The position numbers were made by a program, and so were the translations under genes. Below, piece by piece: positions 13,195 to 60,383 of a stretch of DNA of 64,000 nt. Within the stretch, counting starts at the first letter, position 1. Each line of letters begins with the position of its first letter. Below the pieces are notes generated by a model. It was not told the DNA's origin. It saw only the letters and a program-made list of their open reading frames with translations, and did no database searches. Source of the DNA: Xylographa opegraphella (lineage: Eukaryota); NCBI GenBank assembly GCA_022813865.1, contig JALDZX010000026.1, positions 62,001 to 126,000 on the forward strand, in the 5' to 3' direction.

Positions 13195-14330
13195 TTATGA
13201 GCGTTCCCCGTTAAGCAACTGAGCTCCACTTTGCTCGTGCGAGCCCTGTCTATCCCGCTGGCCTTCCTCAGCTTCGCGTTCCTGAACTTTCCCCTGATCG
13301 GCATGCTTTGCCGGGTCGAACACATATATCGGGAATTCCAAAAATATAGTGCGTTTGAGTATAGTTGGAGTGTGGACGTAAAGCTGTGGTGGAAAGGGAA
13401 CCATGATACTCGTTCTCTCCGTATAGGTTTTGTATGACTCCCAGCCATTACCACTCTCATACCTTTTCTTCGCGCCAGGTCTCTCTTGAAGATTTAAACC
13501 AGAAACGAACATGAGAAGGACTGTGAGAAAGATGGCACCAAGCACAGTAGCAGAGAGAGCATTGTATGCGGCGCCAGTGACGTAGCCATATGCTGCTGGA
13601 GATACAGCGATCATGTATATTCCTGAGCGAATCGTTAGTTGGGCTCCATAATCCACAACATTTCGAACTTACCAAATTGGATTATGATCTCGCCGAAGTA
13701 GTTTGGATGCCGGCTGATGGTGAAAAGACCGACATCGCAGACCTTACCTTTGTTCTCTGGCTTGCTCCTGAAAATGTACTTCTGCACATCCGAAACGCTC
13801 TCCAAGAAGAAGCCGATAGCAAACAGTATGACGCCAGCAATGTCTCGTCCAGTACCAAACGCTGGCTGGGGAAATTGTGTAATATTCGGAGAATTCAGTA
13901 CAGTCACAGGTAGAGAGACAGTCCACACCCAGATCATCTGGAATACCCAGAATCCGAGAAAGGGGAAGAACTTGTCGCGTTTGTCGTCGAAACGGTCATC
14001 CTTCCCGGTTTTGATGATCCGAAACAACAGGAATGCTGAGAGTCGTGCGCCCCACAACATTATAAAGATCGAGACGACGATTTGCCGGGCATCAGGTTTA
14101 CTAGAAATGGCTAGGGTAATTATAGCTAGGACGACGAAATTGGTTCCACCCGCAAAGTCTGCGGACACAAGTCAGCGATGGGAAACCGATATCGCTGGAG
14201 CCAATCGAATACCAGTCAATTTGTCGAACTTGAGTGAAAACGCGATCGCAAAGAAGAACAATTGGTAGCCAATGGTGATCAATAAGGTAATAGCCAAATA
14301 ATAGTCATCCAGTACGTGTACCGCCCCCAT
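13195..14330 (-). CDS. DUF1295 / steroid 5-alpha-reductase-like membrane protein
   Basis: MGAVHVLDDYYL start, DFAGGTNF, GKDDRFD, SRHPNYFGE, FVSGLNLQE. Two introns. Confidence 0.9.
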
Positions 14331-15371
14331 GATGTTACTTGTATGTATTCAAAGTGCATGCAAAGGAAGATAGCTGGCAGCGCGATATATACAGTATTAT
14401 TCTCCTTGTAGGCAGCATGGTCTGCTCGAGACTAGAATCCGCCAACGTACACTTTACCAGTCCAGGCGTGCTTGTTCGACAGCCGCCAAGCCGCCGATTC
14501 CGAGCTTAATATCACGAAATGACGTCGTTGATTTCGTCCGCCAATCAGACGCAACTCCGTCGGGCGATTCTGAGCTCCGACTTTCCGACTCCAATTCCAC
14601 AATACTTGCTCACAGAGTAGAGTTGTATAAGGAACTCAAATTGTGTCCGGTAGAACAAAAGATGGTTGTCTGTAATACAACGGTCTTTGCTCGCCAGGCC
14701 TTCGTCTACCAATGTTGATCATGCCCTCTGCTGCGGTTTTCACTGAACTTGGCCTTACAAGTTTCTTCTCATTCGCACATCTAACCATCTGATATCACTA
14801 TCTGCTGTTCAACGTCTATGGTATCACGGCTCATGACTCGTGGGCTTTTGGAAATGATGTAGCCTTGTTTATTATTGTTGTTTGTTCAGCGTGGAACAGT
14901 TTGAACCTCTCGTACTTCTAAGAGTGCAGGAAAAGGAGTGTGTTGAAAATAGACAGCCTGCTCATCATCCTTCGTTTCGATCAACTGCGCTCTCCTAGCA
15001 CTTCTCAGGGCACTAAAGAGGAGCTATGGTCCTCATACATAGGCCAAAATTCCAACTCACTTACCTTAACCAGCGCTTAATCGAGTCAAAAGCTTTATGC
15101 AGAACCGTTTAGTGAACATCACAATCTGAGCAAGGCGGATACACGGACCTTTTAGGACCACAGACGCTTGACCAAGTTGCCCAAGGCCCTCTTGTAAGAT
15201 CCATATCCGGCTGTTGAAATCCCGGAGTCAGCTTTACACTACGACATAAGTGCCGCGGGACCTGGAACGTTTCAACAGTGTATGCTGCTCCACGCAGATG
15301 TCTCAAACTTCAGTACACCCAAGATGTCTTCATATCCACAGACAACGGCAATAAAAAAGTAGCAGACTTAC

Positions 15372-15944
15372 AGTACGAGCCAGCCGGAGGATAAGTACCA
15401 TAGCTAGCATAGGATGGTGCATAAGTTCCTAGACACTATTCAGTTCTAGTAAGGCTCGACCGAGTAAGAAGATTTACCATAATCCGCATACGAACCATAA
15501 CTGGTTGGCTCTGGTGCCGCTTCTGCTTCAGCTACTGGCTCGGGGATCGCCTCAGCAACTGGCTCCGGCTCGGGTACAGCATCACGCTTCTTCTCAGTCT
15601 CAACATTCAGACCATCCGCCTCTCTCTTATATGCTCTGAAAGATGCCACATGACAGTCAGTGTTCATCAATCATTACATCCCAACCTCTTTACACTCGTA
15701 CCCATAACCTGAATAACTGCCTGCAGGAGGATAGGTTCCTAGGAAGTGTCAGCGTAAAGTATTCTGCAGAAGCCGCGAGAAGAAATGGAAAGCTACCGTA
15801 TCCAGAGTAGCTACCATAGTCGGTAGGTTCCGGTTCTGGCGCAGCATCACGTTTCTGGTCAGCCTCGACTGGAATGGGGTTTGCAATGACAATCGTGGCC
15901 GAGGCGAGCGCCAGCAGAGCAAGGATGTTCTGAGTGAGCTTCAT
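15372..15944 (-). CDS. Secreted Kex2-processed Tyr-rich repeat precursor (putative RiPP precursor); 3' end unresolved
   Basis: Exons 15944-15797, 15738-15702, 15635-15478 and 15428-15372 splice in frame (GT-AG). Translation: MKLTQNILALLALASATIVIANPIPVEADQKR-DAAPEPEP-TDYGSYSGYGTYPPAGSYSGYGAY-KR-EADGLNVETEKKR-DAVPEPEPVAEAIPEPVAEAEAAPEP-TSYGSYADYGTYAPSYASYGTYPPAGSY. Confidence 0.85.
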
Positions 15945-17058
15945 GATGAACATTGATGTCAGGAGTGGGTGCGGTATTTGGGAACAGAGATGGATGAGGA
16001 GATGGCTTCAAGTTGAGAGGGAACGAGCTTCACTGAGAGACGAGGAAGCCCTCATTTAAGAAGGTTGGGATGAAATTTGCTACCTTCTTGGACTCCTGGA
16101 CAAGTGCCCATCATGGCCTCCCGGACCAACCTCGGTGGTCTTGTCTTCTGTTACCATCGGTGATAGTGGCAAGCCGGGACGTGCCTTGCAGGAAGAAGTC
16201 ACTCGTAATCACTTCTGTTGGCTCAGTTAGGGTAACATACGGGCTGCGAGCTTGGTATACGAGCATTCAACATGGCTTTCAATCCCCAAAGGCTCCTCGC
16301 TGTCTTAGTACCAAGCACAGTCATCTAGTCGACATGACTGCTGCGAGGCATCACAAGGTCCTTCAGACGATTTGAGTAAAGATCGGTAGAGGTGACCGTG
16401 GAAGCTTGAGCGACACTATGCACAACCCCGCATCTCACCGGTTACCGCAGAGTGCTGCTCGTGTTCTGAGAGACAACTCGCGTGATGAACTTCGTAACCT
16501 CGTATAAAGGCGAGGACTGACGCGTTGAAGGCAATAAATTACGCACTAAAATGCAAAAGTTACCCGTTTGGGGTCAAGCGGGTGCCTTCGGAGTTAAAGC
16601 AAGGTTTCTGGCGTTTAGGGCTGCCCGGGTGCAATGTTAACATAAGCGAACCCCGCCTTTCGGTGAGACTTTAGGGGTGAGTTTCACCAACACAAACAGT
16701 TCTCGGATGCACACGAACTTCATGGTAGCACCCTGCTTTGTACGAGCTGCCCCTATGCGGCTGGTTTGCATCCCACAGACATGTTACTATGGCACGCTCG
16801 ACCACGCCAGTGTGGACTGCGTATACGAAGACGTACAGCTAGGTGCATTTCCGCTCAGGCCACCCTAATGGGGTGAGAGTTGGCTGGTGAGGCTTGAGAC
16901 TATCGGATTGCCAGCCTACCTACGAATTGAGCCTCCTCTTGATATCATGGTCTTGTTCACACGATGTCCCTAGAGCTCCTAGAGTCCCCATTCATCTGTA
17001 CTTCGGCTCCATGTCGTTCTACCCGCAGAGCGTTGCTTGTTGACTGTCCGATCATACA

Positions 17059-18140
17059 ATGTTCAGATATATTCGTGAGAAGAAGGTCAAATTCAGTCCG
17101 CTTCCGCAAGCAGAGGATCAGAATGCATTGATTCCCGATTCAAGTAGTGTGGAGGCACTGGCCTCGTTGTCGAGAACCAGACCAACACGACTCCCAATTG
17201 CTCTTCTCTTTACTCTATCGCTTCCTATTACTGCTCTCCTAGGAGCATGGCTGGGAAGCCAGTGGCTCGCTGACGCCGATTCTCTCTGTATCAACCATAT
17301 TTCTCAATCGTGTAAGCAGACGAACTGCGATGCATTCAATGTTTTGCTGATGCTTTATGCAGCCCCTGTAACAAGAGACCTAGGCATAACATACGAAATC
17401 GTTGCCTTCAATGGCTCCTTATTGAAAGAGAACATATTCCGACAAGACGCGAGTCCTGAAGTTGACGCAGCGTGGCAGTCTTTAGGCGTCGATTGTGAGC
17501 AATTTTAACAGCGCCACAGGATTCACAGCTCACTGTAACGAACAACAGATCGGTCTGCCATCATCCCAGTTGACCTTGCGGAGCAGGCTGGTCTCTCTCC
17601 AGATCACGTCCAAGTGAGTGAGAAGTACGGGGGTGGCTTCCCAGCTAATGTTGAGGGGCTCCACCACCTCCACTGTCTTGTAAGCATCTGCTGGAAAAAA
17701 TAAATGATTTAGCTCTGACCCCTTGGCCCAAGAATCTTCTCCGCCAAGGCCTCTACTACAATTACGAATACTACCACTCGCGGGGCGAGGACGCCTTCAA
17801 GAACTCCGACGAGATCATCCGCTTCCACGTTTGTGCGTACCACAAGAACATGCTTTATTTCTAAATGTCCAGGCCGCGCAGCTACTAACAGCTCCCAGCC
17901 CATTGCCTTGACATCCTCCGCCAGCAGCTCATGTGCACCGTGGATATTGCCGTGCTAGGGCAAGTATGGTGGGACAAGTCCTCGCCGAGAGCGTATCCCG
18001 ATTTCAATACGCGGCACAAATGCCGGAACTTTGATGCCGTGCGGAGGTGGGCGGAGGAGCGCCAGGCGCCGGAAGGGGTACCGCCGGATTATTTGCAACC
18101 GCCGGCGAGTCTGGATGATGTGTATGCTACGATACCGTGA
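17059..18140 (+). CDS. DUF3328 / UstYa-family oxidase
   Basis: Exons 17059-17311, 17363-17494, 17549-17679, 17733-17832 and 17899-18140. N-terminal TM helix, SPEVDAAW, LHHLHCLNLLRQ, FHVSHCLDILRQQLMC and HKCRNFDAVRRWAEE. Confidence 0.93.
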
Positions 18141-18915: not shown

Positions 18916-21900
18916 TCACCAATCATCATCCTCCTCCGGCTTCCCCTGCATACTCGCCTGCCTAGCCCTCAACGCCTCCGCCAAGCCGCCCGCCAGACTA
19001 GGCGCGCCCTTGCCGCTCTCAGGCGTCGCTCTGCCGCTCCCGTTGCCATTCATCGTCATGCTGACGGCGCTATCTCTGGGAGCCGGGGGCGGGGCTGTTT
19101 TGCGCACGGCGGGACGCTTGGTCGGCGGCGCGGGCGGCGTGGGCTTGGCTTTGGCGATGGGGAGCGCGACGCCGTTGGTGGCGGGCTGGGGGGCGGGGAT
19201 GGAGTGGCGGGCGGGAGTTGGCGGTGGTGGGGGCGGTTGGGCGGCGCGGGTGGGGAGTTCTTCCTTGAGGTAGGCGGAGGGGGCCCAGCCTTGGCCGGCG
19301 CCGGAGAGCTTTTTGGCGAGCCACCAGCCTGGGGGGTTATGTAAGCTTGGGGAAAGGGCGAGGGGGCAGAGGGTTTTCGTGGGAGGGGTTGTGAAGCTTA
19401 CCATTTCCCTCTTTCTGCAGGATTTCGAGCAGCTCGTCTTTTTGGATGGACAGCTCGGTCGTGCCGCTCGTGCCGCCGAAGTCGTACAGGACCCGGTAGA
19501 TGTCTTTCTTGATCTGGGGCGCGGCTGCTGGCGGCGGTGGCGGAGGGGGTGGAGCGCGGGTGACTGAAGACGAAGACTCGGTTCGGGCATGGCCGAATCC
19601 GTTCGCCGCCGCCACGGGCTGAGGGACTGGTCGCGATTGTATTGGTAGCGGTTGGGTGACGGTTTGCTGTGCGCGCGGAGGCTGTTGGGGTACAGGTCTT
19701 GCAGCTACTGGTCGGGAAGCAGCTTTAGTAGGACCTCCGCCGGGGCCGCCTGGACGTAGCAGTTTGCCATTGGTGATTGGCTTCCCAGGAATTCGTTTTG
19801 CTTTTGGTGTAGGTCTCGATCTGGAGTTGGGCGACTCCCCAGGCCCTGTGTGAATAGTCCCGCTCTTATAAAGATCGTCCCTTTGGACAGTATTGTCCTT
19901 CACAACCTTGATGGCCGTCGGCTTCCCCGGTTTCTTGTTGTATTCAATACTAAACAGAGGTCAGCACGCAATCTCATAGATTGACTTGTAACTTACGAGT
20001 CTGCTATCTTCAAATTAAGTCCGCCAGGCATGGCCATCTTCAAGTGAGTGAAGAACTCGGTCTTGAAAACACAATTTAGTAGTGGATCGGGTTCTTGAGC
20101 TGAGCCGATACCGAAAGAGAACCAATCGTCCTTCAAGACTGATGTGCTAACGTATTTGATGGACCCAAGCGGTATAGTGCGCTCCGACGATATACGCAAC
20201 TGCCGCTCAACCATGGATTGGACAATGATATAAACGTTCTTATTAGTCTGTGTCTTTGGTCAGTCTCTTGATATCTTCTGAATACGAAACTACTGCTAGG
20301 ACTCACCAAAACCAGTATCCTGGGACTCGGCTTGCTTGATCGGCCAAACTTTGCCACTAGAAGATCACACCTGCACGAGAATAGCACTCTTTCCTGGCCT
20401 GCTCACCCAGTCAGTCAACCAAGAATCAAAAGCATCGATCATGCTTACCACTGATATTGACAGAATTGCGAATAAGCTCGCCTGAGCCACCTCTGTTTCC
20501 CACTCCAAGGTAGTCTCCTAAAAATCTCCTTGACCCGACAAGACTATACCTTCTTCGCTCCTTGCGGTTCTGTAGCACTTCATGTCCATAGTCTCTCAAC
20601 TTTATGAACTCCAAGCCGCCATTGACCTTTCTCCAAAATCGTTGAATTCGAGTTGCACACTCGACACGATATCGAACATAATTCCGCCACGCCCTTTGGA
20701 TTCTCACAGCCATATTCGACCAGTACCGATCTCGCATTGCCTCAAGAGCGAAAAGGGTTTCGGGAGTCTTGATGAAAGCTTTAGTCACCCCCATCTGGTA
20801 TTCTTCGATTGGTATACTGGTATCCTTCAAGATCTGCTTTGTACCAGAAAGCGAATCACCTGTCCATGTATAGTCTCCAGCATAAGAAGTCTTTGGAGAG
20901 AGCAAGTAAAAACGCTCCACGAACTTATCGAAGGTCTGCCGATAAGCGAAACCGGCTCTGCGTATCCGCACGTTCTCCTGTAATCCAAGGTACTTGATTT
21001 GATGCATGACATTCGCCACGTTGTACTCGGTTGGGGACTTGTTGTCGTTGGGCTTGATGGTTCGAATATATGATGGAGAAGCTTTCATAAGAGTGTCTAC
21101 AAGTTCATTTGCAGAGGCCTTGATCTTGTCTCCCGCAGTTGGCGGTCGTCGTTTGTCGTCTTGATTAACCTCGTTAGGAAATAACGAGTGGACGAAGTCG
21201 TTGGAGCTTTCCGAGACAAGGTTCAGAATGTCCTTCAGTAGTTGATCCTTATTCTTATCCGTCATACCCTCGATAGCATAACTAACATCTCCGGCATAGT
21301 GTTTGATGATAAATTGACCTTGTCGAGGCTGGAAGTGTGGATTTGAGGATAGCGCATTGAGTCTTTGGACAAAGGTTTGGTCCGCAGCTCCCGGATCGGC
21401 ATGAGCAGTTGCACAGGCGTCATTGAGCGCAGCAAATACTCCTGGTGGTCGTTTTTCTTCGATCAATTGGCAAACTATCTTATTATCGAAATAGTTGATA
21501 GGTGTCCACTGAATTTGCTCCCTAGCGTATTCTTCTTGCTCGGTCCTGAGAGTTAGCTGAATGAAGATTTGTTGCAGCTTTTCATTAACATAATTGATGC
21601 AAAGTTGCTCGAAGCTGTTTCTTTCAAAAATTTCAAACCCATAGATGTCTAATATACCAACAGAATTCGCCACGACTCCGCGGGCTTTGAGAGAAGCATT
21701 AACTCTCTCTACGATCCAGTCAAAGAGATTGAAGTAAAGGGCTTTAGCCAGAGCGTCCCGAACCGATGAGGCCTGGGTGATGTTCAATGGAACCTCATAA
21801 ACTGAACCTCGGCGACCACCACGACTAGTTTCCACGATTCTAATGGTCAGTGCCTTGTTCACGTGAGCCGAATCAACTTCCAATAGATATGCCACAAAAT

Positions 21901-23113
21901 CAACCACAGATTGGTCACTTATGGCCGCATTTTCATCGTCGTTTTGGATATAAGAGACGTTTCCGAGCCAGAGAATAGCCGCTAGTATCCGGAAGATGTT
22001 GTCTTGCTCGCTCTGAGCTAATCCAATCACTCTCATCGCATTGAGCGTATCGTTGAAATCAGAGACGTCATCAATACCAGGGACATCGAAGCATTTTGAT
22101 CGGCTTGTATAGGTATAACTTTGTGGTTGCTGAATACCGAATAGCTCTATAGAAGCTATCAGCGGCGTAGTTCCGGCTCATACACTGGGATCCCATACCT
22201 CTATGGCTCTGTGAAGCGGCCTTTGCGAATTGATAGAAAATGTGGAAATTCCGCTCATTTGTGATCTGACCGACCACTCGCGTTTTTTCAAGTAGATAGT
22301 TGGTAATATTGGCTCCGATTGGTTCCCCGTGGTCATTGAACTGCAGTTCCAGGTACTTACCAAATCTTGAGGAATTATTATTCCTAAGCGTTTTTGCATT
22401 TCCAAAGGACTCTAATAACGGATTCGTTGCTAGAACCATGTCTTTAATCTCTTGGATAGCCGCATTGCTTCCTCCGGAAACACTCGCTATGTACTGCATG
22501 ATCCTTTTCGCGGCTTCGGTTTTACCCGCTCCTGACTCTCCTGAGATGATGACGCATTGGTTCTCCTTGTAGCCCTTCATATTGTAGTATGCCGATTCTG
22601 CCACCGCAAAGACATGTGGCGGTACCTCCAGTCGATTTTTGTCGCGGTACGACTTCAGAACTTGATCTGTATAAATACCCACTGTCACAGAATTAGCCAC
22701 ACTGGGCTTGAAAGTTATTGGACCGACGCACAATCGCGGAAAGGGTTTACTGAGACGAGCACATGGCCGATATATGTCTAATAGACGATGTTAGTCTTAA
22801 GTATCACCACCTCTTAGGCTCGTATCCACGAACGTATATCTCAGCATTCTCAAACCGTTTCTTCAAATTATCGTTGATGGCTTCATTGGAGATCTTGCTG
22901 AGCAGCGTGAGATCCGAAACGCCAACCTCCTTCTTCTTCGAGCTCTCAAAGACTGCCTTCTTGACCTGCGGCTTGCCCCCTCCTCCGCCTGCTGAGGATT
23001 TTGCATTGCCAGCATCCTTCTTTCGACCGGCGCGTTTTGTTACGGCCTGAATTTCGCAGAAGTCAGCTACTTGGACCTCTGTAGAATCTGGGCTGCCGAA
23101 GACGATGTACCAT
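18916..23113 (-). CDS. myoA: Class I myosin (MyoA/Myo3/5 type)
   Basis: P-loop [26 protein letters not shown] motifs, TH1, SH3, Pro-rich region and acidic end EEDDDW. Multi-exon; first exon is ATG only (23113-23111). Confidence 0.97.
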
Positions 23114-47706: not shown

Positions 47707-49575
47707 TTATCTATCTTGAAGCGCCTTATGGTCTAGATACTCCTGCAGCACACCCTTCAGATCGTCCGCGACACAGGGCGTCCAAAAGTCCCCGACCCCT
47801 GTCTTTCGATGACTCTTTACTCCCATCTCCGCAAGCAGCGCATCCGTGTAAGGTATCAGATCATAGTAGAGCCAATGCCCGAGCTCCCCCTTGGTCAGAT
47901 ACCGTCGTCGGCACCACGCCACCCCCAATGCGACTTCTTCTTCCATATGCGCTCGTGAGGGCTTACGCAGAACTCCGTCCAGGTAAGCAGTTGCCCAGAG
48001 AGCTTGAACTTCTGCCGCGCGGAAATTGTTCCCAACAGCGATGTGGCCGAGGAATAGTATGTCGTGGTAAGCAGGATGCGTGGACAGCATGTGTTTGTAG
48101 AGCCGAAACGGGGAAGAGGTTGGAGGAGACGAGTGGTAATGGGGTGGATTCCGGAGACGGGGAAAGCGGGTCAGGATTTCTTGATCGGCGGCTGCATCTA
48201 GGTCTTGCCATTCAGGCTTTGCTGTGACATCTGTCGAGACTGGAAGACCGAGATCACGGGCCAGAGACGGGTCGACGAATGAATGATACGAAGGCCGCCA
48301 TCCAGTTGCGCAAATCAGCGTGTCTACTTCGATCTTGTCCTTGGTCAAGACAATACTGCTACCATCGAACTTGACTATGTCTTGCCGATAGACCTTTACT
48401 TTCTCGGCTATGACGTCCCATAAATCTGGTCGTTGATTGACGCCTGTACTGTCGTTTTGCCAGAATATTCTAAGGCTGTCAGCTTTACATTGGATTATCA
48501 TATATCTTGACCTTACGGAGTATCGGGCTTCAGATTCGCAAAGCCATTTTTCTCGCCGTGCCTACCATCGTAATCTGCCGCTCGTCTGGCATCTGCGTCA
48601 ATCTTTCCCCAGATCTGATCCACAAGTCTCCGGCCAACAGCAGTTCCATGCAGTAAGTGTTCTATCCAGCCGCTTGGCATCCACACAGACGGGCTTAGAC
48701 TTGCCGTCAAGCGTGTGTAGAGCAACTCGTTCGAATTCTTGTATGGCCCGATTCCCTGCGCCGAAGCAAAAGCTGCTGGCCCGCTACCACTCGCTCGAAT
48801 GATCCATGATACTGCTTTACCACCTTTTGCACACGCATAGGCAATGTCGGCTGCTGATTTGGCGCCACCAAGAACAGCAACGCGTTTGACTCGAGAATTA
48901 GCGAGAATTGAGGAGCTCCCAAAATCCTTATGGTGAAGAATAGTGCCAGTGAATGAGCCGTGTCCTGGTAAGTTAGGGATGTTGGGCTGTGATGTTAAAC
49001 CCGCTGCTACAATCAATCTGCTTGTAGATAAGCCTTGATTGTCAGAAATTATGATATGCCAGCCGCCTTCCTTAATTTTTTGGATCGCCTGTACAGGACT
49101 GTTGAACTTAATTCTCTGCCTTAAAGACTTTTCCGAGTAGATTTTGCTATCTACAAAACTTTCGAGATACTGAGCAACATATTTGGCAGGGAAGAAATTG
49201 TAATACGTCTCGTCATCCATCAGGCAAGGTTGCATAGGAAAATCAGAGAAACATGCCATATCTAGCGGAGTTTGAGTCCAAAAAGCTGCGAAACAAAAGC
49301 AAAATGATACTATCAGCGGATGTCAAGTAAAATATGCTTCCTCACAATTACCATCGTACATGCGCTCAGAACTCCAAACACCACCAAGACAGGGACGGGC
49401 CTCCAAGATCACCAAGCGAGCCTCAGGATGTACTTTGAGCCATGTGTTGGCGAAAGCCAGGCCATAAAGACCTGAAGGATACTTTAGCAAGATACTTGCT
49501 TGCCCAGCATGTTGATATCTTGCCGGCTCCGACGATGACCACGTCGTAATGGGTTTCATATGCGGTTTTGTTCAT
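47707..49575 (-). CDS. Flavin-containing monooxygenase (FMO/BVMO-like class B)
   Basis: DVVIVGAGLYG across a GC-AG intron, GGVW, FTGTILHHKDF, VLGGAKSAAD and DTLICATGW. Confidence 0.9.
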
Positions 49576-50081
49576 ACTGTCTAGCACGGCATACTAATAA
49601 GAGGCTACAAATTCGATCTGAACAAAATATTGAGGGACGTATAGTTAATTTGATGTGAATGCAGATATCGTATCGATGTCAGATTATAATGTACAATAGT
49701 TATTCATACTACAAGCGCTGAATCACATAGATTATATGAGACGATGATCCAGACTGAAGCACTGTATCTTAGACGGATCTTAAAGTAGACTAGAGCAAGG
49801 TCAAATGCAAGGTCAAACCCTGAGATGATGACCTTACCTAAGGTATACAGTACTGGTACGGCTAGACTTTAAGAGGACAAGCAACTTCCCCGGAGCGGAA
49901 CATCACTAATCACCGAACGTGGGTGCTACCCCACATCTACACCATAATCAACATTACTCAATGATTTGACCAACGGACATAGTTGTAAGTAATAATAAAG
50001 CTCTTGTTTCACAGCCCTGAGTAACCATTCTAGTTCTTCAAACTATCCGATACTGAGCAAGATCTCCAATCTTTGCTTTCT

Positions 50082-50563
50082 ATGGCTAACTCCGCACGAT
50101 CCGTTATCTACATCCTGTACAACGCCAATGCCAATCTCATAGGAAAACTCGATTACGCCGTTAAGAAATTCCGAGCATCGCCCGAAAATAGCCCTTGCTC
50201 GGCCTGCGACCTCACGCATGGTGGTCTACGATTGACAGAAACGAAAGACTGGACTGCAACGAAAGAGAAGATTCCGGCAACTGTGAAGCAGCTACATCGA
50301 GACGAGCTGAGTGAGGAGGTATTCATACCCGCTCTACGTTGAAACCATATAAATGCATGGGTCTAATATCTACGTAGCTTCTCACGTTTGTTTCTCAGAA
50401 CGGATTGAAGTATCCTGTGGTGCTTGGCCAACCACCATCTGGAGCTTTTCAAGTTTTATTGACATCGGAGGACCTCTCAGAGGTCTCCAAGGATCATACT
50501 GCCTTTCTTTCGTTGCTTTTCAATAGGGCCGAAGAGAAGAATGTTCCACTAACCAAGCTTTGA
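50082..50563 (+). CDS. Small (140 aa) hypothetical protein with CxxC (CSACDLTHG)
   Basis: Exons 50082-50318 and 50378-50563 (GT..ctaat..TAG intron). Motifs IYILYNANA, CSACDLTHG, QLHRDE and YPVVL. Confidence 0.75.
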
Positions 50564-50572
50564 AACCCCAAA

Positions 50573-51226
50573 ATGTTTGACATCGCTCTGCGTCAGTGGA
50601 AGGATCAATTGGTCGATCCCCTTGTTCGCCAATTACCGGAATGGATTACACCTGCAAGGGTTACACTTGCAGCTCTGAACGCTGGATTGATAGCATGCTT
50701 ACTGGCCTCTGTCCCTATGTACAGGCGCTGGTCTTTGGGCTTTTGGGCTCTTAATCGCCTCCTAGACTGCTTCGATGGATCTATCGCACGTTCGAGAGGT
50801 GCCGCTACCGAACTTGGTGGGTTCTTGGACCTGCTTGGAGATTTTATCGTATACTCCTTGCTACCAATTTTCATAGGCATAGGGCAGGAACGGCTCACGG
50901 CTGCTTCCATCGGTTGGGTTGCGGTAGCTACACTCGAAGCCAGCTTTCACATCAACAACTTCATCTTGTTCTACATAGCTGCCGTGGCCTCTAAGCGAAA
51001 AGATGGAGAGTTAACCAGCATCACCATGACTCCAGCTCTCGTTGAAGGGTTCGAGGCCGGTCTATGTTTCACTATCATGCTCATATGGCCTAGCATGATT
51101 ACTCTTTGGAGTTGGCTGATGTCTTTAGCGGTGGCGATTGGCATCGTCCAGCGTGTGCGGGTTCTGATGCCAGTATTGCAGAGACTCGATGGAGCAGGAA
51201 GGAAAGCTTCAATGAAGAGTCAATAG
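50573..51226 (+). CDS. CDP-alcohol phosphatidyltransferase family membrane protein
   Basis: Full signature D-x2-DG-x2-AR-x8-G-x3-D-x3-D (LDCFDGSIARSRGAATELGGFLDLLGD). Intronless, multiple TM segments. Confidence 0.93.
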   Translation: MFDIALRQWKDQLVDPLVRQLPEWITPARVTLAALNAGLIACLLASVPMYRRWSLGFWALNRLLDCFDGSIARSRGAATELGGFLDLLGDFIVYSLLPIFIGIGQERLTAASIGWVAVATLEASFHINNFILFYIAAVASKRKDGELTSITMTPALVEGFEAGLCFTIMLIWPSMITLWSWLMSLAVAIGIVQRVRVLMPVLQRLDGAGRKASMKSQ

Positions 51227-51611
51227 CAACTAGCGGTTTCCAAGGAGACATCATAGCCTCAAACAGCAATTTGAAATGATTCCGTCACGATGAAATGATT
51301 TGATCACGCGTATACATAATGAGTGCTCTTTCGTCTGGCCAGAGCAATGGGAAGGCAGGGTATCGACGACACGTGATATCGAAACTTCCGACTAACCCAT
51401 TTTGTCGTAGATCAGACCCTGAAAAGACTCCACTACGTCAACATTTCCCAAATGCCGAACCAGCACTAGCCTGTAATACGCACTTTTTATCTGCGAAGTT
51501 GTAATGCCAGATTTGCTCCGAAGCTCTAGCTGGCATTGGGACACCAAAGAGAGGTGATCTTGCTCGTTCGTCATGTCATCTTACACACTATCACTCATAA
51601 AGTCGTGAGAC

Positions 51612-52664
51612 ATGGCACAACGTTCAGATCAAGTCATGGTCTCTTCTCCCGAAGGTCCGCAGATTCGAGTTCCCTCTGTGTGGATTCCACGGATCTGTCT
51701 GCATTCCATAGTCTTAACAGGACTTTTGCTTCCTTCTATCTACGAGTCCTTTCTCTCTACGTTGTGGACAGCTCTCTCTGGTTCCAGCTTGTACCGCTTT
51801 TCGGGGTTCGAAACTCTTGAGACCGTCCTCTGCTACATTATTATCGAGCCATTCTATACTTATAAGTTTGGTCGAAATCCAAACCTTCGCATCGATGTGC
51901 GGGGCTCGAAGTGGAAGGGGTCGGGATCCGAACGACCGAAGATTCCAAAGATGCGGCGCCCCTCCAAGAGGATGGGTGAGATGTTCATCTATATAGCGCC
52001 ACTTTTGGCGATGGACTTGACAATGATCAAAAAGTTTGCTGGAGTTCCGGTCGCCGACATTCGTCGTTCGGGCGGATATCCGTTACCGCTGGCCAACGCG
52101 AGCGCCGGGGACATAAGCTCCAGTTTTCTCTTGCCCACGATACATAATTTTACACTGGAGTCGCCACTCCAGTTGACACGTGCCTTGCCTACCGAAGTCC
52201 CTTCGAGTAGGCGATTGTTGTTGGAATTGATAATATCGTTCTTCATCTACGATGCGCTGTTTTTCTTCATTCACATTGCTTTTCACCGGATCAAATTCCT
52301 TGCAAAAATCCATATGCCGCATCATACGCACACTGAGATGCACCCGCAAGTTACCAACAAGCTCTCGGTTGCGGAAAGACTTTCCCTTGTTCTATTGGCG
52401 AACTTTGCGCTCAATATCATTGGAAGTCATGTGCTCACAAGAAGTGCTTTCGTGCCGGTTTTTGTCTATCTGCTGGTAGAGGTGCATTCAGGTCTAGACT
52501 CGGAATGGAGCTACGATAAGCTGATACCATTTGGATGGGGTGCGGGAAGTAGAGTTCATGCGGTGCATCATCGGACAGGAGATGGAGCTTTCGCACCGTT
52601 CTTCACATGGTGGGATAGAGGACTTGAATGGATGGATTTGAGGCGGGAAATCAAATCACAGTGA
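51612..52664 (+). CDS. Fatty acid hydroxylase / sterol desaturase superfamily (cholesterol 25-hydroxylase-like)
   Basis: His boxes HIAFH, HMPHH, EVHSG and HAVHH; FAPFFTWWD. Intronless. Confidence 0.9.
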   Translation: MAQRSDQVMVSSPEGPQIRVPSVWIPRICLHSIVLTGLLLPSIYESFLSTLWTALSGSSLYRFSGFETLETVLCYIIIEPFYTYKFGRNPNLRIDVRGSKWKGSGSERPKIPKMRRPSKRMGEMFIYIAPLLAMDLTMIKKFAGVPVADIRRSGGYPLPLANASAGDISSSFLLPTIHNFTLESPLQLTRALPTEVPSSRRLLLELIISFFIYDALFFFIHIAFHRIKFLAKIHMPHHTHTEMHPQVTNKLSVAERLSLVLLANFALNIIGSHVLTRSAFVPVFVYLLVEVHSGLDSEWSYDKLIPFGWGAGSRVHAVHHRTGDGAFAPFFTWWDRGLEWMDLRREIKSQ

Positions 52665-53264
52665 AACCTTTTGTGCATAGTCTTGCATTCGGGCCTCTGT
52701 TGGTGGGTCCAAGGTCGATGCCGTGCGACCACGAGCATTCGTAGCGTATTTGAACCTGACAGTGAACGTAAATATACAAGACGCCCAACGAAACCAATCA
52801 CATTCCATTGGTGTCGGCCACGATATCCAATATATTTATGTTTGAAAGCTATGTACAGACCGGTCAAGCAGCAGCTTCAATCTAAAACCTACGGAACGAG
52901 GTAGAATGTTAGTAGGACTACTTGATATTAGAACATGACTTGTGCATAAAGCGAGACCAAATTTATCCACATCTGGCTCTTACAGATTGGGATTATCCAC
53001 AGCTCTTTGCTGGATCTGCAACTCGCAAAAGAGACCATTGCGGAGAGGCACGAATTCGACATCGCCTGGATGGAGACTGTCTATCCTTCAGTGATTCATT
53101 ATGTTGGATCGACCGACCAGCTAGTAGCGCTACGCGTTATTGGAAGATAGTGCCCGCCCCGCATGAGAAAATGTTATCTCATCGTCGTGGTCTGATAGAT
53201 CGCGTTTGTCCTATACCGGAGCTCTGGAGTTATCGGTCAGCGTCTTCAGTGTTCGAGGAGTACA

Positions 53265-54977
53265 ATGGAAGCCCATGAGGAGAAAACGATGCCTGACGAG
53301 CACGCATATTCCGAGAAGCTTGCAGTAGCCAATACTGATTTCTTCTCTGCGGATGCAACTAGTCCTCCAACACATCAGCACGTTCATCACGCTTCGAAGA
53401 GACCAGTATTGAACGTGGTATACGTCTCGCTTTCAGTTTTCATCCTGTTTCTCAACTACTTCCTTGCTCAATATGACAAATTTGTGCTTTCTTATTTTCA
53501 AAATGAGGTTATCAACTCCCTGAACCTTACATCTACAGACTACGGTGTGCTATCGGGCTATGCCACCGGTATTGCATACGCCCTGCTGGCTATTCCAGTT
53601 GCTTTTGTTGCAGATTATGCAGATGCTAGAGTCTGGGTCTTGAGTGTGGCGGCGTTGTGGTGGAGCCTCTGCGTGCTATTTCAAGGTCTGAGCCACAACT
53701 TCTGGCAAATTCTACTGGCAAGGGTTGGCATGGGGGTCGGTCAGGCTCCTGTGGAGGCTTTGAGTATCAGCATCATTAGCGATTTAGTGGAGCCACGATG
53801 GCTCTTTCTGAGTGAAAGGTACAATCCGCTTTAGCTTCAACACGAAGCAGTGTTGTTGATGCTCACCAGTTTGTTCTATGTGGGTGTCTATCTCGGAGAG
53901 GCTGTCAGTGGTCAGATTGCTACAGCATTCGATGCCACTGGGACGCCTTGGAACAAAGCCATGATAGCCATTGGTATTGCTGGAATTGTGTTGGCAGTAC
54001 TTACTCGTGTTGTGCTTCGAGAACCAACACGGCGTGTCTCTGTCATGGCTCCCGTACAGAGTTCTGATCCGTCGATATTCGTTGGAGGCTCCCAATCAAA
54101 TCGAAAGGTCGCACACGCAAAGAGGCAATTCCTGGCCTCGGTGTCCCAGATAGTTCGGATGCGCTCCTTCTGGATCCTGGCCCTTTCTTCTGGGGCAAGA
54201 CAGTTCAGTGGTAATGTTTTTGGGTTTGACTACTTTTCCTTTCCTTGAAGGCAATTGAGCTCTAATCAGTACAATAGATGGTATATGCCGGGGTATCTGA
54301 CATCGCGTTACCCCTCGCAGCCTGACTTACTGTCAAACTATGGAATCATTGTTGGAGCAGTAGGTTCTGTGGCAGTCGTTCTCGGCGGTGTAATCTGCAC
54401 GTCTACTGGCAAGTATAGGACGACAATGCCACTCTACATAACTGCAATCGGTGGCATGATATCCGCTGCCTTTGTCGTGGTGGTGGTCTTCTCTCTGGAC
54501 CTTGCAGGTGGAAATGAAGCCAGAGGTGTGCAGATCCTTTACGGTGGCATGAGTGCCGCATATATAACCGCAGAATTATGGTTGGGAGCGTATGCCTCGT
54601 TACTGGCTATGCTGCTCCCCGCGCGCACCAAGACCTTCTGTCTAGCCATCTACACGAGTACCATTATTCTGATCTATTCCAGCGCCCCTCAGATTATCGG
54701 CTTGGCCCTCGAAAACTATGATGTCAACAGCGAAGCCTATATTGAGAAGACGAGGGATATCTTGGCAATCTTGATCCCGGTGGGCTATTGGGTTGCTGGA
54801 CTCGGGCTGTTCTTCTGTGTGAGCAGAGTGAAGGCCGACATTGCGGGCGATGTGGTCGAGGTCGGTCATGTTACTCGTTTGAGGAAAGGAGCATTTATCG
54901 GTTTCTGGCTCGCCTTTGGTGCTTTGACCATCGCTCTCTTTGTTACTAGTCTGGTGATAGCCAGCCTGGTGGGCTAG
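53265..54977 (+). CDS. MFS transporter, Spinster-like
   Basis: About 12 TM segments with LNYFLAQYDK, ADYADAR and ARVGMGVGQA..IISD. Two introns join three ORFs. Confidence 0.82.
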
Positions 54978-55338
54978 GCGCAGCATAAGATCCGAATGTA
55001 CTGATTATGCTGAAAATATACGAAAGTCAAAAACCTTGTGCTGATCGGCTGTTCTTGCTAAATGAGCAAAAAGAATGCTTTTTGACCGGATTTTTGTTTT
55101 TCCTTTTTGCTGATGGATATAATATTTTTACTACAGTGCAACGTATTTTTCGATTATCAAGTCGAAACCATTAACATAAAACACGCCGCTCAGCACGAGC
55201 CTATACATAAAATCGTATTATTCTTTTACGCATAACTTCATCATAACGTATCATTATTAAAAGCTAATTACGTTTCTGGCGAGCAACATGGCCGGTCGAT
55301 ACCGCGAAACCACAAGCCGCATCCCCGCTCTTTCCCCT

Positions 55339-56413
55339 CTAATGTGAGGTCGCCACCTCGCCGTTTTCCCCCATCCGCACCGCGATGGACGTCAACTCGT
55401 CCAAATCCTCCTTGGGCAGGCCAAGCACGTCGTTGTGGATGGGCCTGAAGTCGCCGTCGGCCGTGGGGAAGAACATGCGGCTGTAAAGCATTTTGGTGAA
55501 CTGGCTGAAGTTGTGCTTTTGTAGCTCGGCGGTGGCATGCTTGAAGCGCTGCGCGGAGGACTCGTGGGAGATGGCCCAGTCCGCATCGGTGGTCTTCGAG
55601 ACGCGTTTGACGCTGTCGAACATGTCACGCTGATTGAGGCGGAAGCTGTTGATGTAGACCGAGGTATTACGGAACTGGGAAAGCGTGGTGCGCTTATCCG
55701 CAGCATCGTCTGGAAGCTCCGGTAGGCTCAGCAGGCTCGCGACGGCGCGGCCGCATTGGGCCCAGGTGCTGAGGTTGAACGGGACGTCGCCGTTGTCGAA
55801 CCAGATCAGCGAGCGCTTCTGGAAGTCGAACCCGAAGCGATCCGGCCCACCGCCCAGGCTGAACTCGAACCAAAAGTTGCATGCCAGCATGATGTAGGAG
55901 CTCGTTCCCTCGAGCTTCGCGAACTCAGCATGGATCGTGTCACGCGCGGGCGTCAGCCAGCTGTCCCTGCACAGCGCGTCGTTCTCGCCGTCGTGCCCGA
56001 ACCAGTTTGGCAGCACGTACGACACACCAGCCTTTGCAGCCGCGCGCACCAGTTTCGGGATCGTGTCTGGTGGCGCTGTTACCGCCATGGTGATGATGAG
56101 GACCTGCTGGCCCCGGAGCGCCTCCACCAAGGCCGTGTCGTCGTCGCTGCTGTAATCAACGCGGGAGACTTTGACGCCTTCGGGTATCTTGTTGGTGCTG
56201 TTAGGGCGTGCGACAGCCGTCAAAACAAATCGGCCGGCCTTGAGCAACTGCTCTGTGAGATGTTTGCCCATCTGGCCGCCAGCCTAGATCTCTTGGTCAG
56301 CAAGGACGATTCTGGTTTGAGAGCGGTGGCGTAAGACATACCCCGATGATAGCCACCTTCTCGATGCGGTTGAGGAAGCCCTGAGGCGGATCCTTTGCAT
56401 ATCTCGTCGTCAT
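55339..56413 (-). CDS. NmrA/isoflavone-reductase-like NAD(P)H oxidoreductase (CipA-like)
   Basis: Exon 1 ends KVAIIG, then intron, then AGGQMG (Rossmann motif). Also AAAKAGVSYVLPNWFG and STWAQCGRAVA. Confidence 0.88.
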
Positions 56414-56897
56414 GGTCGTTTCCGTAAGTCAAGGCTCGAAAATGGGATATGGAGAGAGTTTGGTGCCTTACTAGATGGCAGCCCCGAGGGATGATGAGGT
56501 CGGTCCATTGGCGTACATGAGACATTTCGAGCGGAGATAACGGTATTCTTCCTCCGAGATGACCATAAATCCAGGGCTCGGCTATTTTTCACATGTAATA
56601 CAAGGCCACTACTATCCCCTGCCTTGTCAATCCCAATCCTGCGCTTCCATTCCCAAGAGTTCATAAGCGCACTGTACTCGAGGCGGCTCGGGGGTCAGCG
56701 GGAAAATACGGTCGACCAGATTTTTTCAGCTCCTAAACCCATTCCACATTGGCTGATCTCTCTGCAATGTCCGATGCCTTGAAGAACACGCCTTGGGAAT
56801 CGTGCCTTGCGAGAATGGGAAGTTCCCAGGTACATAAAAGAAAACATGATGCCGCACAGTAATCGTCCCAGTGTCCTCGTCGGTACAAATAATCATT

Positions 56898-57185
56898 ATG
56901 AAAGCTTCGGCTTTGCTTTCTCTTTATTCGAGCTTGGTGTTGCCTCAGTGCACTAACCTGCAGGGGCTTAGTGCGCCGCGTCTGATGTCAGGTACCTCTT
57001 AGGCACTGAGGCAAGCTTGCTGTTCGCCGTTGCACTTACCACGAGGCACGAATTGGACCCGTCGAACTACGCCAGTGAGGATGTTATTATTCACAATGTG
57101 GCGATAATCGACGGCGGCGCCACCGGTACATATAGTGCTATCAATTTGCGCGCGAAAGGAAAAAGTGTCGTCGTGTCTCTAACTC
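56898..57185 (+). pseudogene. Truncated 5' relic of a secreted FAD-dependent oxidoreductase
   Basis: DVIIHNVAIIDGGATGTYSAINLRAKGKSVVV is a GxGxxG FAD-binding start with a G->D change. No downstream catalytic body follows before the P450 begins. Confidence 0.6.
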
Positions 57186-57305
57186 CTATAGAACAACCCC
57201 TTCTACTACGAAGTAAAGTCTGTCTATCTTCCACACTCCAGTGCCCCGTTGCTCCCCCAAACGCACCCTCATCCCGTACTTGCGAATCCCTGTAATCCAC
57301 CAAAT

Positions 57306-58760
57306 ATGGTATTCTCCACCCTCAACCAAAGCCTCGCCTTCCACGCCTCCCCCGAATCCTTCATCTCCACCCGTCTGCAGAACCTCGCCGCGACGGACCC
57401 TGCCCTTGTCTCGTCCGCGGCTGCGAGGCACAAGATCATCCAGACGTCGATCCTGAACCGCAAAGTCCACATTACGTCGTCGTATCGGCTGTGCGAAAGC
57501 GTGCTCCTGGGCGGTGGTGGGATTGCCCTCGACGGGCCCGGCGGTTCTGATGCTGCAGTGTTTTTGAAGGGGGACTCGAAGATTTCAAGTGATGGGACGC
57601 AGGACGATGTCGAAACCTTCGCCGTTTGCCCGGCTTACCATCAGCTCATGGCGGATTTCTTTCCGCCGCCAAACATCTTGCTTGAAGATGGACGGCTGCA
57701 TGCTACGAGCAAGGAGAGGTGGAAGCAGCAACTGTCTACGTTTCCGGCAGACGTGACCCCTTTGATACAGGCTATCACGCAAGCACACCTGAGCACTTTC
57801 CGCCAGGGCCCGTCCATCGATCTCTACGAAAACCTAAAAGATCTCTGCTGGAAGATCTTGCTCGGCATCTTCTTGGACCTGGGCCCGGAAGACGAAGCCT
57901 ACTCTACGATCGAGGGAGCGCAAGAGTCGCTTCTGCGCGGACAGTTCTCCTTGTTCCCGGTAGCGGTAAACATGCCATTTTGGCAATCGCCTCGAGCCAA
58001 GGGGATCAGGGCCCGTCAGGACTTGTTGCCTATGCTTAGAGCGCAGGTTGAGAAGCAGAAGCCTTCTTGTCCTTTACTCCGGCAGCAAAAGATTGGCACG
58101 GACGAAATGAGCTCTCATTGTCTCCTTTTCACTAGCTCTATTGCGAACAAAGCCTTGGCCTCCTTACTGACAGCCACTATCATGAATCTGTTCCTCTTTC
58201 CTAGCCCTACGCCTTTAGCTACGATCGTCCGCTCGCACCCGCCCGAGATGCAGGGCCTTCTTTTGGAAAGCATACTTCTGGAGACAGAACGCCTGAGCCC
58301 GCCGGTGGTAGGCGTCATGCGACGCGTCCAGAAATATATTCAACTGTCTGTCCCAGAGAGCGAAGAGCGTCACCCCGTCCCGGCAGGCTCCGATGTCTGG
58401 CTTTACCTAGCTGGCGCCAACCGCGATCGTGCAGTCTTCTCCGACGCAGAGAAATTCGTGTTTGACCGCTTCATGGCCAGCGAGATCCCTCGCGGTTTTG
58501 CGTTCGGCTTCGGATACAAGTCTTGCTTGGGAGGTGAGCTTGTGCATCAAATCATATCCGTGGTAGCGAAGGTGATGATTGACGCCGACATCACACTCCA
58601 TGGTAACGTATCCGACCATGGCGTTAAAGGCTGGCTTGGCTGGGAGACGGGTGTTCCGCCTTCAGCATTCGCAAGCGATTTGAAACAGCTTCCCTGTCAG
58701 CGGCCCCGAAAGCCGGTTCTTGTGTACGTTGGTTCTGATCAGACGGGTCGGAAAGATTGA
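57306..58760 (+). CDS. Atypical cytochrome P450
   Basis: ExxR (ETER), FVFDRF meander and heme motif FGFGYKSCLG. Intronless. The first in-frame ATG is at 57306. Confidence 0.88.
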   Translation: MVFSTLNQSLAFHASPESFISTRLQNLAATDPALVSSAAARHKIIQTSILNRKVHITSSYRLCESVLLGGGGIALDGPGGSDAAVFLKGDSKISSDGTQDDVETFAVCPAYHQLMADFFPPPNILLEDGRLHATSKERWKQQLSTFPADVTPLIQAITQAHLSTFRQGPSIDLYENLKDLCWKILLGIFLDLGPEDEAYSTIEGAQESLLRGQFSLFPVAVNMPFWQSPRAKGIRARQDLLPMLRAQVEKQKPSCPLLRQQKIGTDEMSSHCLLFTSSIANKALASLLTATIMNLFLFPSPTPLATIVRSHPPEMQGLLLESILLETERLSPPVVGVMRRVQKYIQLSVPESEERHPVPAGSDVWLYLAGANRDRAVFSDAEKFVFDRFMASEIPRGFAFGFGYKSCLGGELVHQIISVVAKVMIDADITLHGNVSDHGVKGWLGWETGVPPSAFASDLKQLPCQRPRKPVLVYVGSDQTGRKD

Positions 58761-58819
58761 TCATCGATGCAGTCAACCCTTCGCTACTTAAGCCAGCAGG
58801 GCAGTGTAACGAACATCAT

Positions 58820-59677: not shown

Positions 59678-60383
59678 GTTAGGAGGCCGCGGAGTGGCGA
59701 CCTCGTCGCTTGCTGGTGAAGTCGAGCGGATGGAGTATAATTCCAAGCTTCTTACTCTTGTGGAAGAGGATGAGAACAAGCTATGCTCACTGTAACCGTC
59801 GGGCGAAAATTGATGGAGATATGTTCAATATATGACGTAGACAGATATTAAATGCCCGTGTACCTGGCCAGCGTGATGATACAGAAAACGTGCGGAAATC
59901 AGCGATATCAGCATGCGCCAAACTGTTTCATTGCAGCGTAGCTGCTCTAAGGACGAGGGGGTTCAAATCGAACATCGGCCGCTAGTGGGGCAGTATTTCC
60001 GCTCCGATCCGTAGAATATTCCCTCTTTAGGTTTAGCTCCAGGGGGTCATGGCTTTCCACAACGCTGCATATTGAGCGAGAGGTCCCCTCGCGCTGGATC
60101 ACCTGGTTGTTTTTCTCGCGTCTGACGTACAGTGAAGCACATAAAGAATGATGGTTCAGTCTCTCCATCGATATCAGGTCCGTAGCGACACAGGCGGTAA
60201 TAAGCGGTATACACGGATTACACGCTAGGGATATATAACCTTTACATTATGCTGTCACTCTATTGAGGCAGATTGGTGCTAAAATCTCATATCATAAGCT
60301 ACTAGGAGCCACTTCGCAGCAAAGCGAAACCAGTTTCAGGCAGCTTTTCACTTCATTTGACAGTTATGAGATTCTTGAATAGA

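Follow-up and report, generated by a model that had tools for sequence, protein, structure and literature searches.

Fungal peptides of ribosomal synthesis with post-translational modification (RiPPs) that depend on UstYa/DUF3328 enzymes are known from a handful of toxins with short cores, and to our knowledge most DUF3328 genes have no known substrate. Our analysis concerns a divergent gene pair in a 64-kb stretch of the genome of Xylographa opegraphella (GCA_022813865.1, contig JALDZX010000026.1, positions 62,001-126,000 of the forward strand; hereafter the window, in whose numbering all coordinates are given), where a Tyr-rich repeat precursor gene on the minus strand stands back to back with a UstYa/DUF3328 oxidase gene on the plus strand. 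The locus probably represents an undescribed, widely conserved modified-peptide system. The form of it that we favor, and hold to be probable though with considerable reserve, is a two-gene, dikaritin-like RiPP module conserved across several classes of filamentous ascomycetes, in which peptide cores released by Kex2, Ste13 and Kex1 would be oxidized by a copper enzyme, most likely to Tyr ether macrocycles.

Formation of the Tyr-to-beta-carbon ether macrocycles in ustiloxins, phomopsins and asperipin-2a depends on DUF3328 enzymes (PMC7329392, PMC6514808, PMC9233826). Asperipin-2a (Aspergillus flavus; aprA) has the core FYYTGY, requires a single DUF3328 enzyme, AprY, and is bicyclic through ethers between Tyr side chains and beta-carbons (PMC6514808). 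The window pair shares with this system a single DUF3328 enzyme, a repeat precursor delimited by Lys-Arg (KR) sites, a Tyr-rich core with Y-x-x-Y spacing and a small gene set (PMC6514808). It differs in that the window cores span 24 and 34 residues with 7-10 Tyr rather than six residues, in that no transporter (aprT) or reductase (aprR) gene lies beside the window pair, and in its Ste13-type spacers, conserved tail and spread over several ascomycete classes. The ustiloxin and phomopsin systems (UstA/UstYa/UstYb and PhomA/PhomY) likewise combine a signal peptide, matched in the window precursor by a signal-peptide-like start, with repeated KR-flanked cores and HxxHC enzymes of the UstYa family in the secretory pathway (PMC7329392, PMC9233826), whereas their cores are of 4-6 residues with a Tyr-x-Ile crosslink, they need a cluster-encoded tyrosinase and several further enzymes, none of which is encoded beside the window pair, and Ste13 is not predicted to process their precursors (PMC6339444). 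The window precursor has no Y-x-I core and its neighborhood holds no tyrosinase, methyltransferase or S41 peptidase gene, which sets it apart from the ustiloxin/phomopsin subtype. The original prediction, made from the DNA letters of this window, had considered the core unlike those of the known dikaritins, and indeed we see no resemblance to YAIG/YVIG, YVIP.. or FYYTGY as these are given in PMC7329392 and PMC6514808.

The precursor also invites comparison with alpha-factor-type Kex2-processed repeat proteins (KEPs), which, like it, have X-Ala/X-Pro dipeptides behind their KR sites and repeats that vary in number, and whose signal peptide has its counterpart in the signal-peptide-like start of the window precursor (PMC6339444, PMC7329392). 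Their genes, however, almost never lie beside a DUF3328 gene, with three exceptions for the mating-factor/pheromone type (PMC7329392), and the window cores are periodic in Tyr and not pheromone-like. The two largest precursor exons, which were scanned, gave no match to the Pfam family MF_alpha, and the DUF3328 partner is conserved, both of which separate the gene from alpha-factor-type pheromones. For the enzyme, a useful comparison is CctR, the biochemically characterized cyclochlorotine hydroxylase, a membrane-anchored homodimeric DUF3328 protein with a lumenal domain, found in Golgi, endosomes and vacuole, whose binuclear copper site is built from HxxHC(x)nHxxHC, whose activity depends on O2 and a reductant, and whose HxxHC residues are essential (PMC12435403). 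The window oxidase has the same domain family, the same HxxHC(x)nHxxHC arrangement and, going by a hydropathy maximum, a predicted similar order of N-terminal region, single membrane helix and lumenal domain; CctR differs in that it hydroxylates a non-ribosomal cyclic peptide. Among lichen-forming fungi, Pasinato and Singh (2025) surveyed 111 genomes, reported DUF3328 signature genes and defined the putative dikaritin-like biosynthetic gene cluster Clans R1 and R2, for which the sections of that paper available to us report no conserved repeated precursor; the main text of the survey does not mention Xylographa (PMC12048977). The window resembles these clans in carrying a DUF3328/HxxHC signature gene in the Lecanoromycetes (PMC12048977), and differs in its clear repeat precursor and in having no tyrosinase, O-methyltransferase or GNAT genes nearby. 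It supplies, beside a dikaritin-type signature gene of a lichen-forming lineage, the kind of repeat precursor that, judged by those sections, the survey did not find (PMC12048977).

In the wider literature, a full-text search for the core motifs returned no paper save an unrelated one on desmoplakin, and no description of this precursor/oxidase family was found among the papers listed for 'dikaritin' (2022 onward) or 'UstYa/DUF3328' (2021 onward), subscription journals excluded. The core strings are absent from the examined supplements of PMC7329392 and PMC6339444. The family may nonetheless be hidden among the 838 KEP types of PMC7329392, whose Table S2, by its column headings, lists accessions and not sequences; candidates are G-6 or G-5/P-1, types with Tyr in them and a DUF3328 gene close by.

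The minus-strand precursor gene runs from its start at 15944 to 15152 and has five exons encoding a 152-residue product, with introns of 58, 66, 49 and 161 nt, all GT..AG. Both gene structures of the pair were read from the DNA and by comparison with relatives, splicing and transcription being predicted. The parts of the precursor gene are:

Precursor exon 1: 15797-15944, minus strand; start, signal-peptide-like stretch, first KR, four X-Ala/X-Pro dipeptides and onset of core 1; donor GTAGCT
Precursor exon 2: 15702-15738, minus strand; remainder of Tyr core 1, 11 in-frame codons
Precursor exon 3: 15478-15635, minus strand; end of core 1 and KR, short spacer to KKR, 13 X-Ala/X-Pro dipeptides and onset of core 2
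Precursor exon 4: 15372-15428, minus strand; middle of Tyr core 2; GTAAGT donor directly after 15372
Precursor exon 5: 15152-15210, minus strand; end of core 2, KR, conserved 11-residue tail with an internal KR, stop; acceptor CAG

The original prediction had called a small spliced gene with a signal-peptide-like start, KR sites and Tyr-rich repeats, arranged as in Kex2-processed repeat precursors, and all of these elements are present. It had, however, ended the gene at 15372, which proves to be the end of exon 4 only: the GTAAGT donor there opens a 161-nt intron that leads to a fifth exon reaching 15152. The ending encoded by exon 5 recurs in P0001 (the annotated X. parallela homologue of the precursor), in P0135 and, when a strict pattern is applied, among no fewer than 28 of the 92 representatives of the family, and this conservation argues for the exon. 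A four-exon alternative that reads through intron 4 was rejected because its tail is not conserved, as is also the case in the probably mis-predicted P0003 and P0132. The region of exon 2 is contiguous in the annotated relatives P0001, P0132 and P0003, and exon 1 is 84-92% identical to the N-termini of five Xylographa-type proteins. In public models of the precursor (the annotated Xylographa precursors P0002, P0003, P0132 and P0133; also P0004 and P0005) the 3' ends are often wrong through intron read-through or truncation, four of the six annotated Xylographa models being wrong or truncated there, and prokaryote-style gene calls run into intron 1. Such mis-prediction leaves the family under-reported by automated annotation and easily missed.

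The precursor begins with Met-Lys and a 19-residue hydrophobic stretch, its strongest 19-residue hydropathy window covering residues 7-25, and this start is conserved in relatives. A short pro-region then leads to a KR. Behind it come four X-Ala/X-Pro dipeptides and a 24-residue core, which has 7 Tyr and is closed by a further KR; the second half consists of a 13-residue spacer to KKR, 13 X-Ala/X-Pro dipeptides, a 34-residue core with 10 Tyr, a KR and the tail. There are four dibasic sites, a KR stands before and after each of the two cores, and all 17 Tyr of the 152 residues fall inside the cores, mostly three residues apart. Both dipeptide runs keep their register up to a point two residues ahead of the first Tyr. 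A KR followed by X-Ala/X-Pro repeats is the signature of Kex2 and Ste13 processing (PMC6339444), and the dipeptide register of the window precursor carries it; the same KR and in-register dipeptides, ending at that distance from the first Tyr, precede the cores of P0001 (runs of 4, 9 and 13) and of P0135, P0138, P0146, P0147, P0151, P0152 and the metagenome loci L013 and L040 described below (runs of 2-12). Introns 1 and 3 fall at corresponding points of the two repeats, a placement that fits duplication within the gene. Core number varies from two in the window to three in X. parallela and at least six in L013 and L040. A variable number of repeats is usual for multi-core precursors.

The plus-strand gene, at 17059-18140, has an open 285-residue frame over five exons, separated by four introns of 51-66 nt, all GT..AG:

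UstYa exon 1: 17059-17311, plus strand; N-terminal region with a single hydrophobic, membrane-anchor-like segment (residues ~47-65); no PF11807 match
UstYa exon 2: 17363-17494, plus strand; PF11807 profile positions 56-90, E 1.1e-5
UstYa exon 3: 17549-17679, plus strand; holds HHLHC; PF11807 profile positions 96-137, E 4.4e-7
UstYa exon 4: 17733-17832, plus strand; closes with the opening residues of HVSHC; PF11807 profile positions 138-162, E 0.0056, 17 bits, below the cut-off
UstYa exon 5: 17899-18140, plus strand; rest of HVSHC, conserved C-terminal domain, stop; PF11807 profile positions 168-220, E 3.5e-21

A DUF3328 gene with five exons and two intact HxxHC motifs had been predicted on this strand and a check against PF11807 proposed; with a cut-off of 25 bits for single-exon matches, exons 2, 3 and 5 each score above it and the four matches of exons 2-5 are collinear over profile positions 56-220. 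The motifs lie at residues 167-171 (HHLHC) and 204-208 (HVSHC, whose codons are split by intron 4), and both are invariant in the nine-sequence alignment A3. The spliced protein aligns end to end and without gaps with P0006, the annotated X. soralifera oxidase, at 89% identity, and its hydropathy maximum at residues 47-65 (mean Kyte-Doolittle 2.04, from the hydropathy plot only) corresponds to the anchor-like segment. Over its full length it is 53-64% identical to proteins from Geoglossum, Sclerotinia, Hyaloscypha and Thelotrema, and its last exon shows 58-94% identity with the 120 proteins listed out of 189 matches, whose span of many ascomycete genera indicates a widely conserved oxidase clade. 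Several short environmental contigs of ~1-2 kb (L001, L003, L004, L007 and others) carry the oxidase match unbroken over ~270 codons, while in genomic loci such as L079 it is interrupted by ~4 introns; the contigs thus look like transcripts after splicing and suggest natural expression of oxidase relatives.

The association of the two genes extends far beyond the window. Conservation of the pair in other ascomycetes had been put forward as a check, with the locus itself treated as a one-off cassette; the pair recurs in five species of the genus and, of 25 dereplicated metagenome loci, in 21-24, and the locus is instead a member of a large, widely conserved family. Within the genus, adjacent locus tags for precursor and oxidase were found in X. 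parallela, X. vitiligo, X. trunciseda, X. bjoerkii and X. soralifera, and the same look-ups returned the oxidase alone for X. pallens, X. opegraphella, X. carneopallida and Ptychographa; a word-indexed search with precursor exon 1 returned only five proteins, three of them named from Xylographa. More distant loci were drawn from a scan of JGI metagenome contigs seeded with an alignment of the oxidase only, in which 549 pattern-matching stretches yielded 164 confirmed relatives, of which the best 80 were kept. Dereplication at 90% or greater nucleotide identity over the oxidase match left 57 groups, and the 25 of these with at least 2 kb upstream of the oxidase form the set used for pairing counts. 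The nearest named oxidases of these loci are 37-83% identical to them and belong to genera that we take to represent Leotiomycetes, Dothideomycetes, Eurotiomycetes and Lecanoromycetes, the lineage having been checked for Xylographa and Amylocarpus; the loci bear a resemblance to Helotiales and Dothideomycetes.

When P0001 was compared with the loci by tBLASTn, many of them proved to hold Tyr-rich repeat genes that lie upstream of the oxidase and run on the other strand. As a marker of the precursor that is independent of any query we counted the word YxxYxxY in all six frames, at least three words within 1.5 kb making a cluster. At least three words lie on the opposite strand within 3.5 kb in 21 of the 25 groups and at least two words in 23, and by eye 24 hold a divergent, upstream, Tyr-periodic secreted repeat gene, with L048 showing a variant repeat and the same kind of tail. 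In related loci the word clusters sit on the opposite strand, 1.1-2.9 kb upstream of the oxidase match; 22 occupy this pair position (including that of L013, a locus with 1.9 kb of DNA upstream), one is antisense over the same gene, and none occurs in the remaining 244,145 bp of locus DNA, the background elsewhere in the loci being 35 words per 347,505 bp. The six frames of the window contain the word four times, and its sole cluster is the precursor gene; since three of the four words fall within that gene, the Tyr repeat is not a matter of chance.

Nothing else in the surroundings behaves in this way. When window open reading frames (ORFs; stop to stop, at least 70 residues, 4,000-32,000) were compared with the loci, no match was found apart from the pair, the matching queries being the first-exon ORF of the precursor and three ORFs at the oxidase gene, of which two belong to the oxidase and one is antisense to it. 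No third common gene was found among the 24 dereplicated loci of at least 5 kb, where the ORF clusters present in more than six loci were the oxidase and its alternative-frame shadows. That the two genes are kept together while their other neighbors change strongly supports, as far as sequence can, the view that they form a functional unit. Although adjacency inside Xylographa is expected from general synteny, a divergent pair in 21-24 of 25 highly divergent loci, with zero control clusters in 244 kb and no flanking gene in common, makes functionally meaningless adjacency through inherited synteny or chance a very improbable explanation.

The family shows further hallmarks in its Ste13-type spacers, its Tyr at period 3 and its conserved C-terminal follower. 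The period-3 spacing is kept even in the most divergent loci, L065 and L072, and is, on the sequences compared, the deepest conserved feature of the core. The most divergent oxidase subclade (L053, L065, L069 and L072; 34-51% identity) has a different periodic-Tyr core containing Cys, Glu, Thr and Pro, and these four loci have in common an extra conserved ORF downstream of the oxidase, ~1 kb from its start, that other loci lack. Annotated relatives of the precursor occur in Amylocarpus encephaloides, Exophiala sideris and Colletotrichum sojae, the A. encephaloides precursor relative and the oxidase P0047 each being on a 72,057-bp contig. An exhaustive phmmer search with P0135 against 1.84 billion representatives returned 92 proteins at E of 1e-3 or below and 17 at 1e-10 or below; 85 of the 92 contain at least two YxxYxxY words, and of ten matches whose origin was looked up nine came from environmental assemblies (JGI/IMG, ENA, Logan) and one from NCBI. 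Many of these matches align to the C-terminal module alone, and the best conserved module of the family comprises the last Pro-rich linker, a Gly-Gly-Tyr core end, a KR and a tail of ~10 residues. The tail looks amphipathic and ends in an aromatic plus one residue (window 15152-15210; P0135, P0155, P0163, P0170, P0171 and others). Look-alikes of P0001 in the ESM Atlas, with best scores of 0.78-0.80, were too weak and went unused.

At the level of sequence the locus is of dikaritin type: its 17 Tyr, all in the cores, could serve as crosslink donors, and its precursor gene lies 1,114 bp from a DUF3328 gene in divergent orientation. Of the interpretation first given to the pair, the UstYa identity, the repeat precursor and the functional coupling stand, and the precursor gene model, from which exon 5 had been missed, does not. 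In the mechanism that we infer, the minus-strand gene would yield a secreted precursor, Kex2 would cut after the KR sites in the secretory pathway, a dipeptidyl aminopeptidase of the Ste13 type would take off the X-Ala/X-Pro dipeptides, which stand in register, and a Kex1-type carboxypeptidase would remove the C-terminal KR, releasing two peptides of ~24 and ~34 residues with 7 and 10 Tyr, mostly three residues apart. The plus-strand gene would provide a membrane-anchored, lumen-facing UstYa/DUF3328 enzyme, presumably a binuclear-copper, O2-dependent oxidase by analogy with CctR, acting on the cores in the compartments of Kex2 and Ste13, where its CctR-like motifs and N-terminal anchor-like segment would place it. 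The most likely chemistry would be abstraction of a beta-hydrogen and coupling of a Tyr phenol oxygen to the beta-carbon, giving one or several ether macrocycles. Bridges from Tyr oxygen to beta-carbon between neighboring Tyr, possibly several per peptide, are favored because the period-3 Tyr match the Y-x-x-Y segment of the asperipin core FYYTGY. The conserved tail after the last KR may serve as a follower or recognition element.

Several observations weigh against the macrocyclic RiPP module. One of the 25 loci, L059, has no precursor, and L050 and L075 have short exon fragments only; the Xylographa gene models that agree with ours are themselves predictions. The window cores are 4-8 times longer than any characterized dikaritin core. 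The oxidase clade is unusually conserved, at 53-64% full-length identity between classes, and the pair stands amid housekeeping genes, without a transporter, tyrosinase, methyltransferase or peptidase gene beside it, a picture that looks more core-cellular than toxin-cluster-like. DUF3328 enzymes, moreover, also hydroxylate, chlorinate, desaturate and transacylate (PMC12048977, PMC12435403), so that cyclization is only one option.

Some of the same features could point to a material and not a small molecule, namely secreted Tyr/Gly/Pro-rich peptides or unprocessed protein that would be hydroxylated, or Tyr-crosslinked between molecules, into an adhesive or protective polymer, either extracellular or associated with the wall. 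The high conservation of the oxidase clade across classes, akin to that of housekeeping genes, and the absence of export or self-resistance genes from the housekeeping surroundings would favor hydroxylation or intermolecular coupling; hydroxylation lies within the DUF3328 repertoire (PMC12435403). The cores are long and of low complexity, with 10-19% Tyr and Pro-rich linkers. Their composition recalls Tyr/3,4-dihydroxyphenylalanine (DOPA)-based adhesive proteins. However, the KR sites are conserved and the X-Ala/X-Pro registers exact, which speaks for the release of defined short peptides, the tail after the KR looks like a processing or recognition element, and we know of no DUF3328 enzyme that acts between molecules or makes DOPA; we therefore regard a material as rather unlikely.

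Still less likely, in our estimation, is an ordinary Kex2/Ste13 repeat protein that would give linear, unmodified signaling peptides in the manner of alpha-factor, with the oxidase merely sharing its promoter or neighborhood. Ste13-type spacers are typical of alpha-pheromone precursors and are not predicted for ustiloxin/phomopsin (PMC6339444), and an alpha-factor-like cluster appears among the weak ESM Atlas look-alikes (score 0.78, a lead only). Against this stand the missing MF_alpha match in the two precursor exons scanned, the rarity of DUF3328 neighbors among pheromone-type KEP genes (PMC7329392) and the retention of the pair alone while all other neighbors change.

The macrocyclic RiPP module can be carried further into a joint proposal that we put forward tentatively and, taken as a whole, consider doubtful. 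The pair would belong to a near-universal, non-toxin peptide system of Pezizomycotina; its conserved copper UstYa would make multiply bridged 'ladder' polycyclophanes or polymerize the peptides into extracellular adhesive or wall material; the tail would be the first recognition (follower) sequence for a DUF3328 enzyme; and the locus, which combines pheromone-type Kex2/Ste13 processing with a UstYa partner, would be a surviving intermediate of the path, proposed earlier, by which dikaritins evolved from alpha-factor-like precursors. Independently of that proposal, the locus links one very conserved DUF3328 clade to a recognizable precursor family with periodic Tyr, Ste13-type spacers and a tail, and offers an enzyme-substrate pair that is open to testing and that many culturable fungi carry. 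Should the product bear multiple crosslinks, dikaritin chemistry would extend to much larger peptides, and if the function is core-cellular, the genome-mining reading of DUF3328 'biosynthetic clusters' would change.

The immediate context of the pair matches what had been described, with a divergent intergenic region of about 1.1 kb, DUF1295 and myosin genes on either side:

Divergent intergenic region: 15945-17058, no strand; 1,114 bp between the start codons
DUF1295 gene: 13638-14171, minus strand; flanking gene
Myosin-1 gene: ~18919-22790, minus strand; flanking gene

The intergenic region is presumed to be a shared promoter, and comparison with related loci found no long conserved non-coding block in it. 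The hexamer TACGAG/CTCGTA, often with a preceding A, reaches 1.28 per kb in the intergenic regions of 26 pairs; elsewhere in those loci the value is 0.37 per kb, and for the window as a whole 0.55 per kb. Four copies lie in 15945-17058, and it is also found in the equivalent regions of L008, L043, L047, L075, L079 and others. It could be a shared promoter element, the evidence being weak because a screen of 7-mers supplied the word post hoc. Among the window genes no tyrosinase, methyltransferase, peptidase or transporter lies beside the pair, and the wider window is occupied by housekeeping genes, including those for Atg6, Scm3, a Na/H exchanger, TFIIS, SAS4, Hsp70, a bromodomain protein and Vps8. 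Some 30 kb from the pair, at 48516-59824, lies a run of enzyme-type ORFs, which resemble a flavin-containing monooxygenase (FMO-like), a CDP-alcohol phosphatidyltransferase, a fatty-acid hydroxylase, a major facilitator superfamily (MFS) transporter, an NAD(P)-binding protein, a cytochrome P450 and a TLC-domain protein, and these could be genes of lipid or secondary metabolism.

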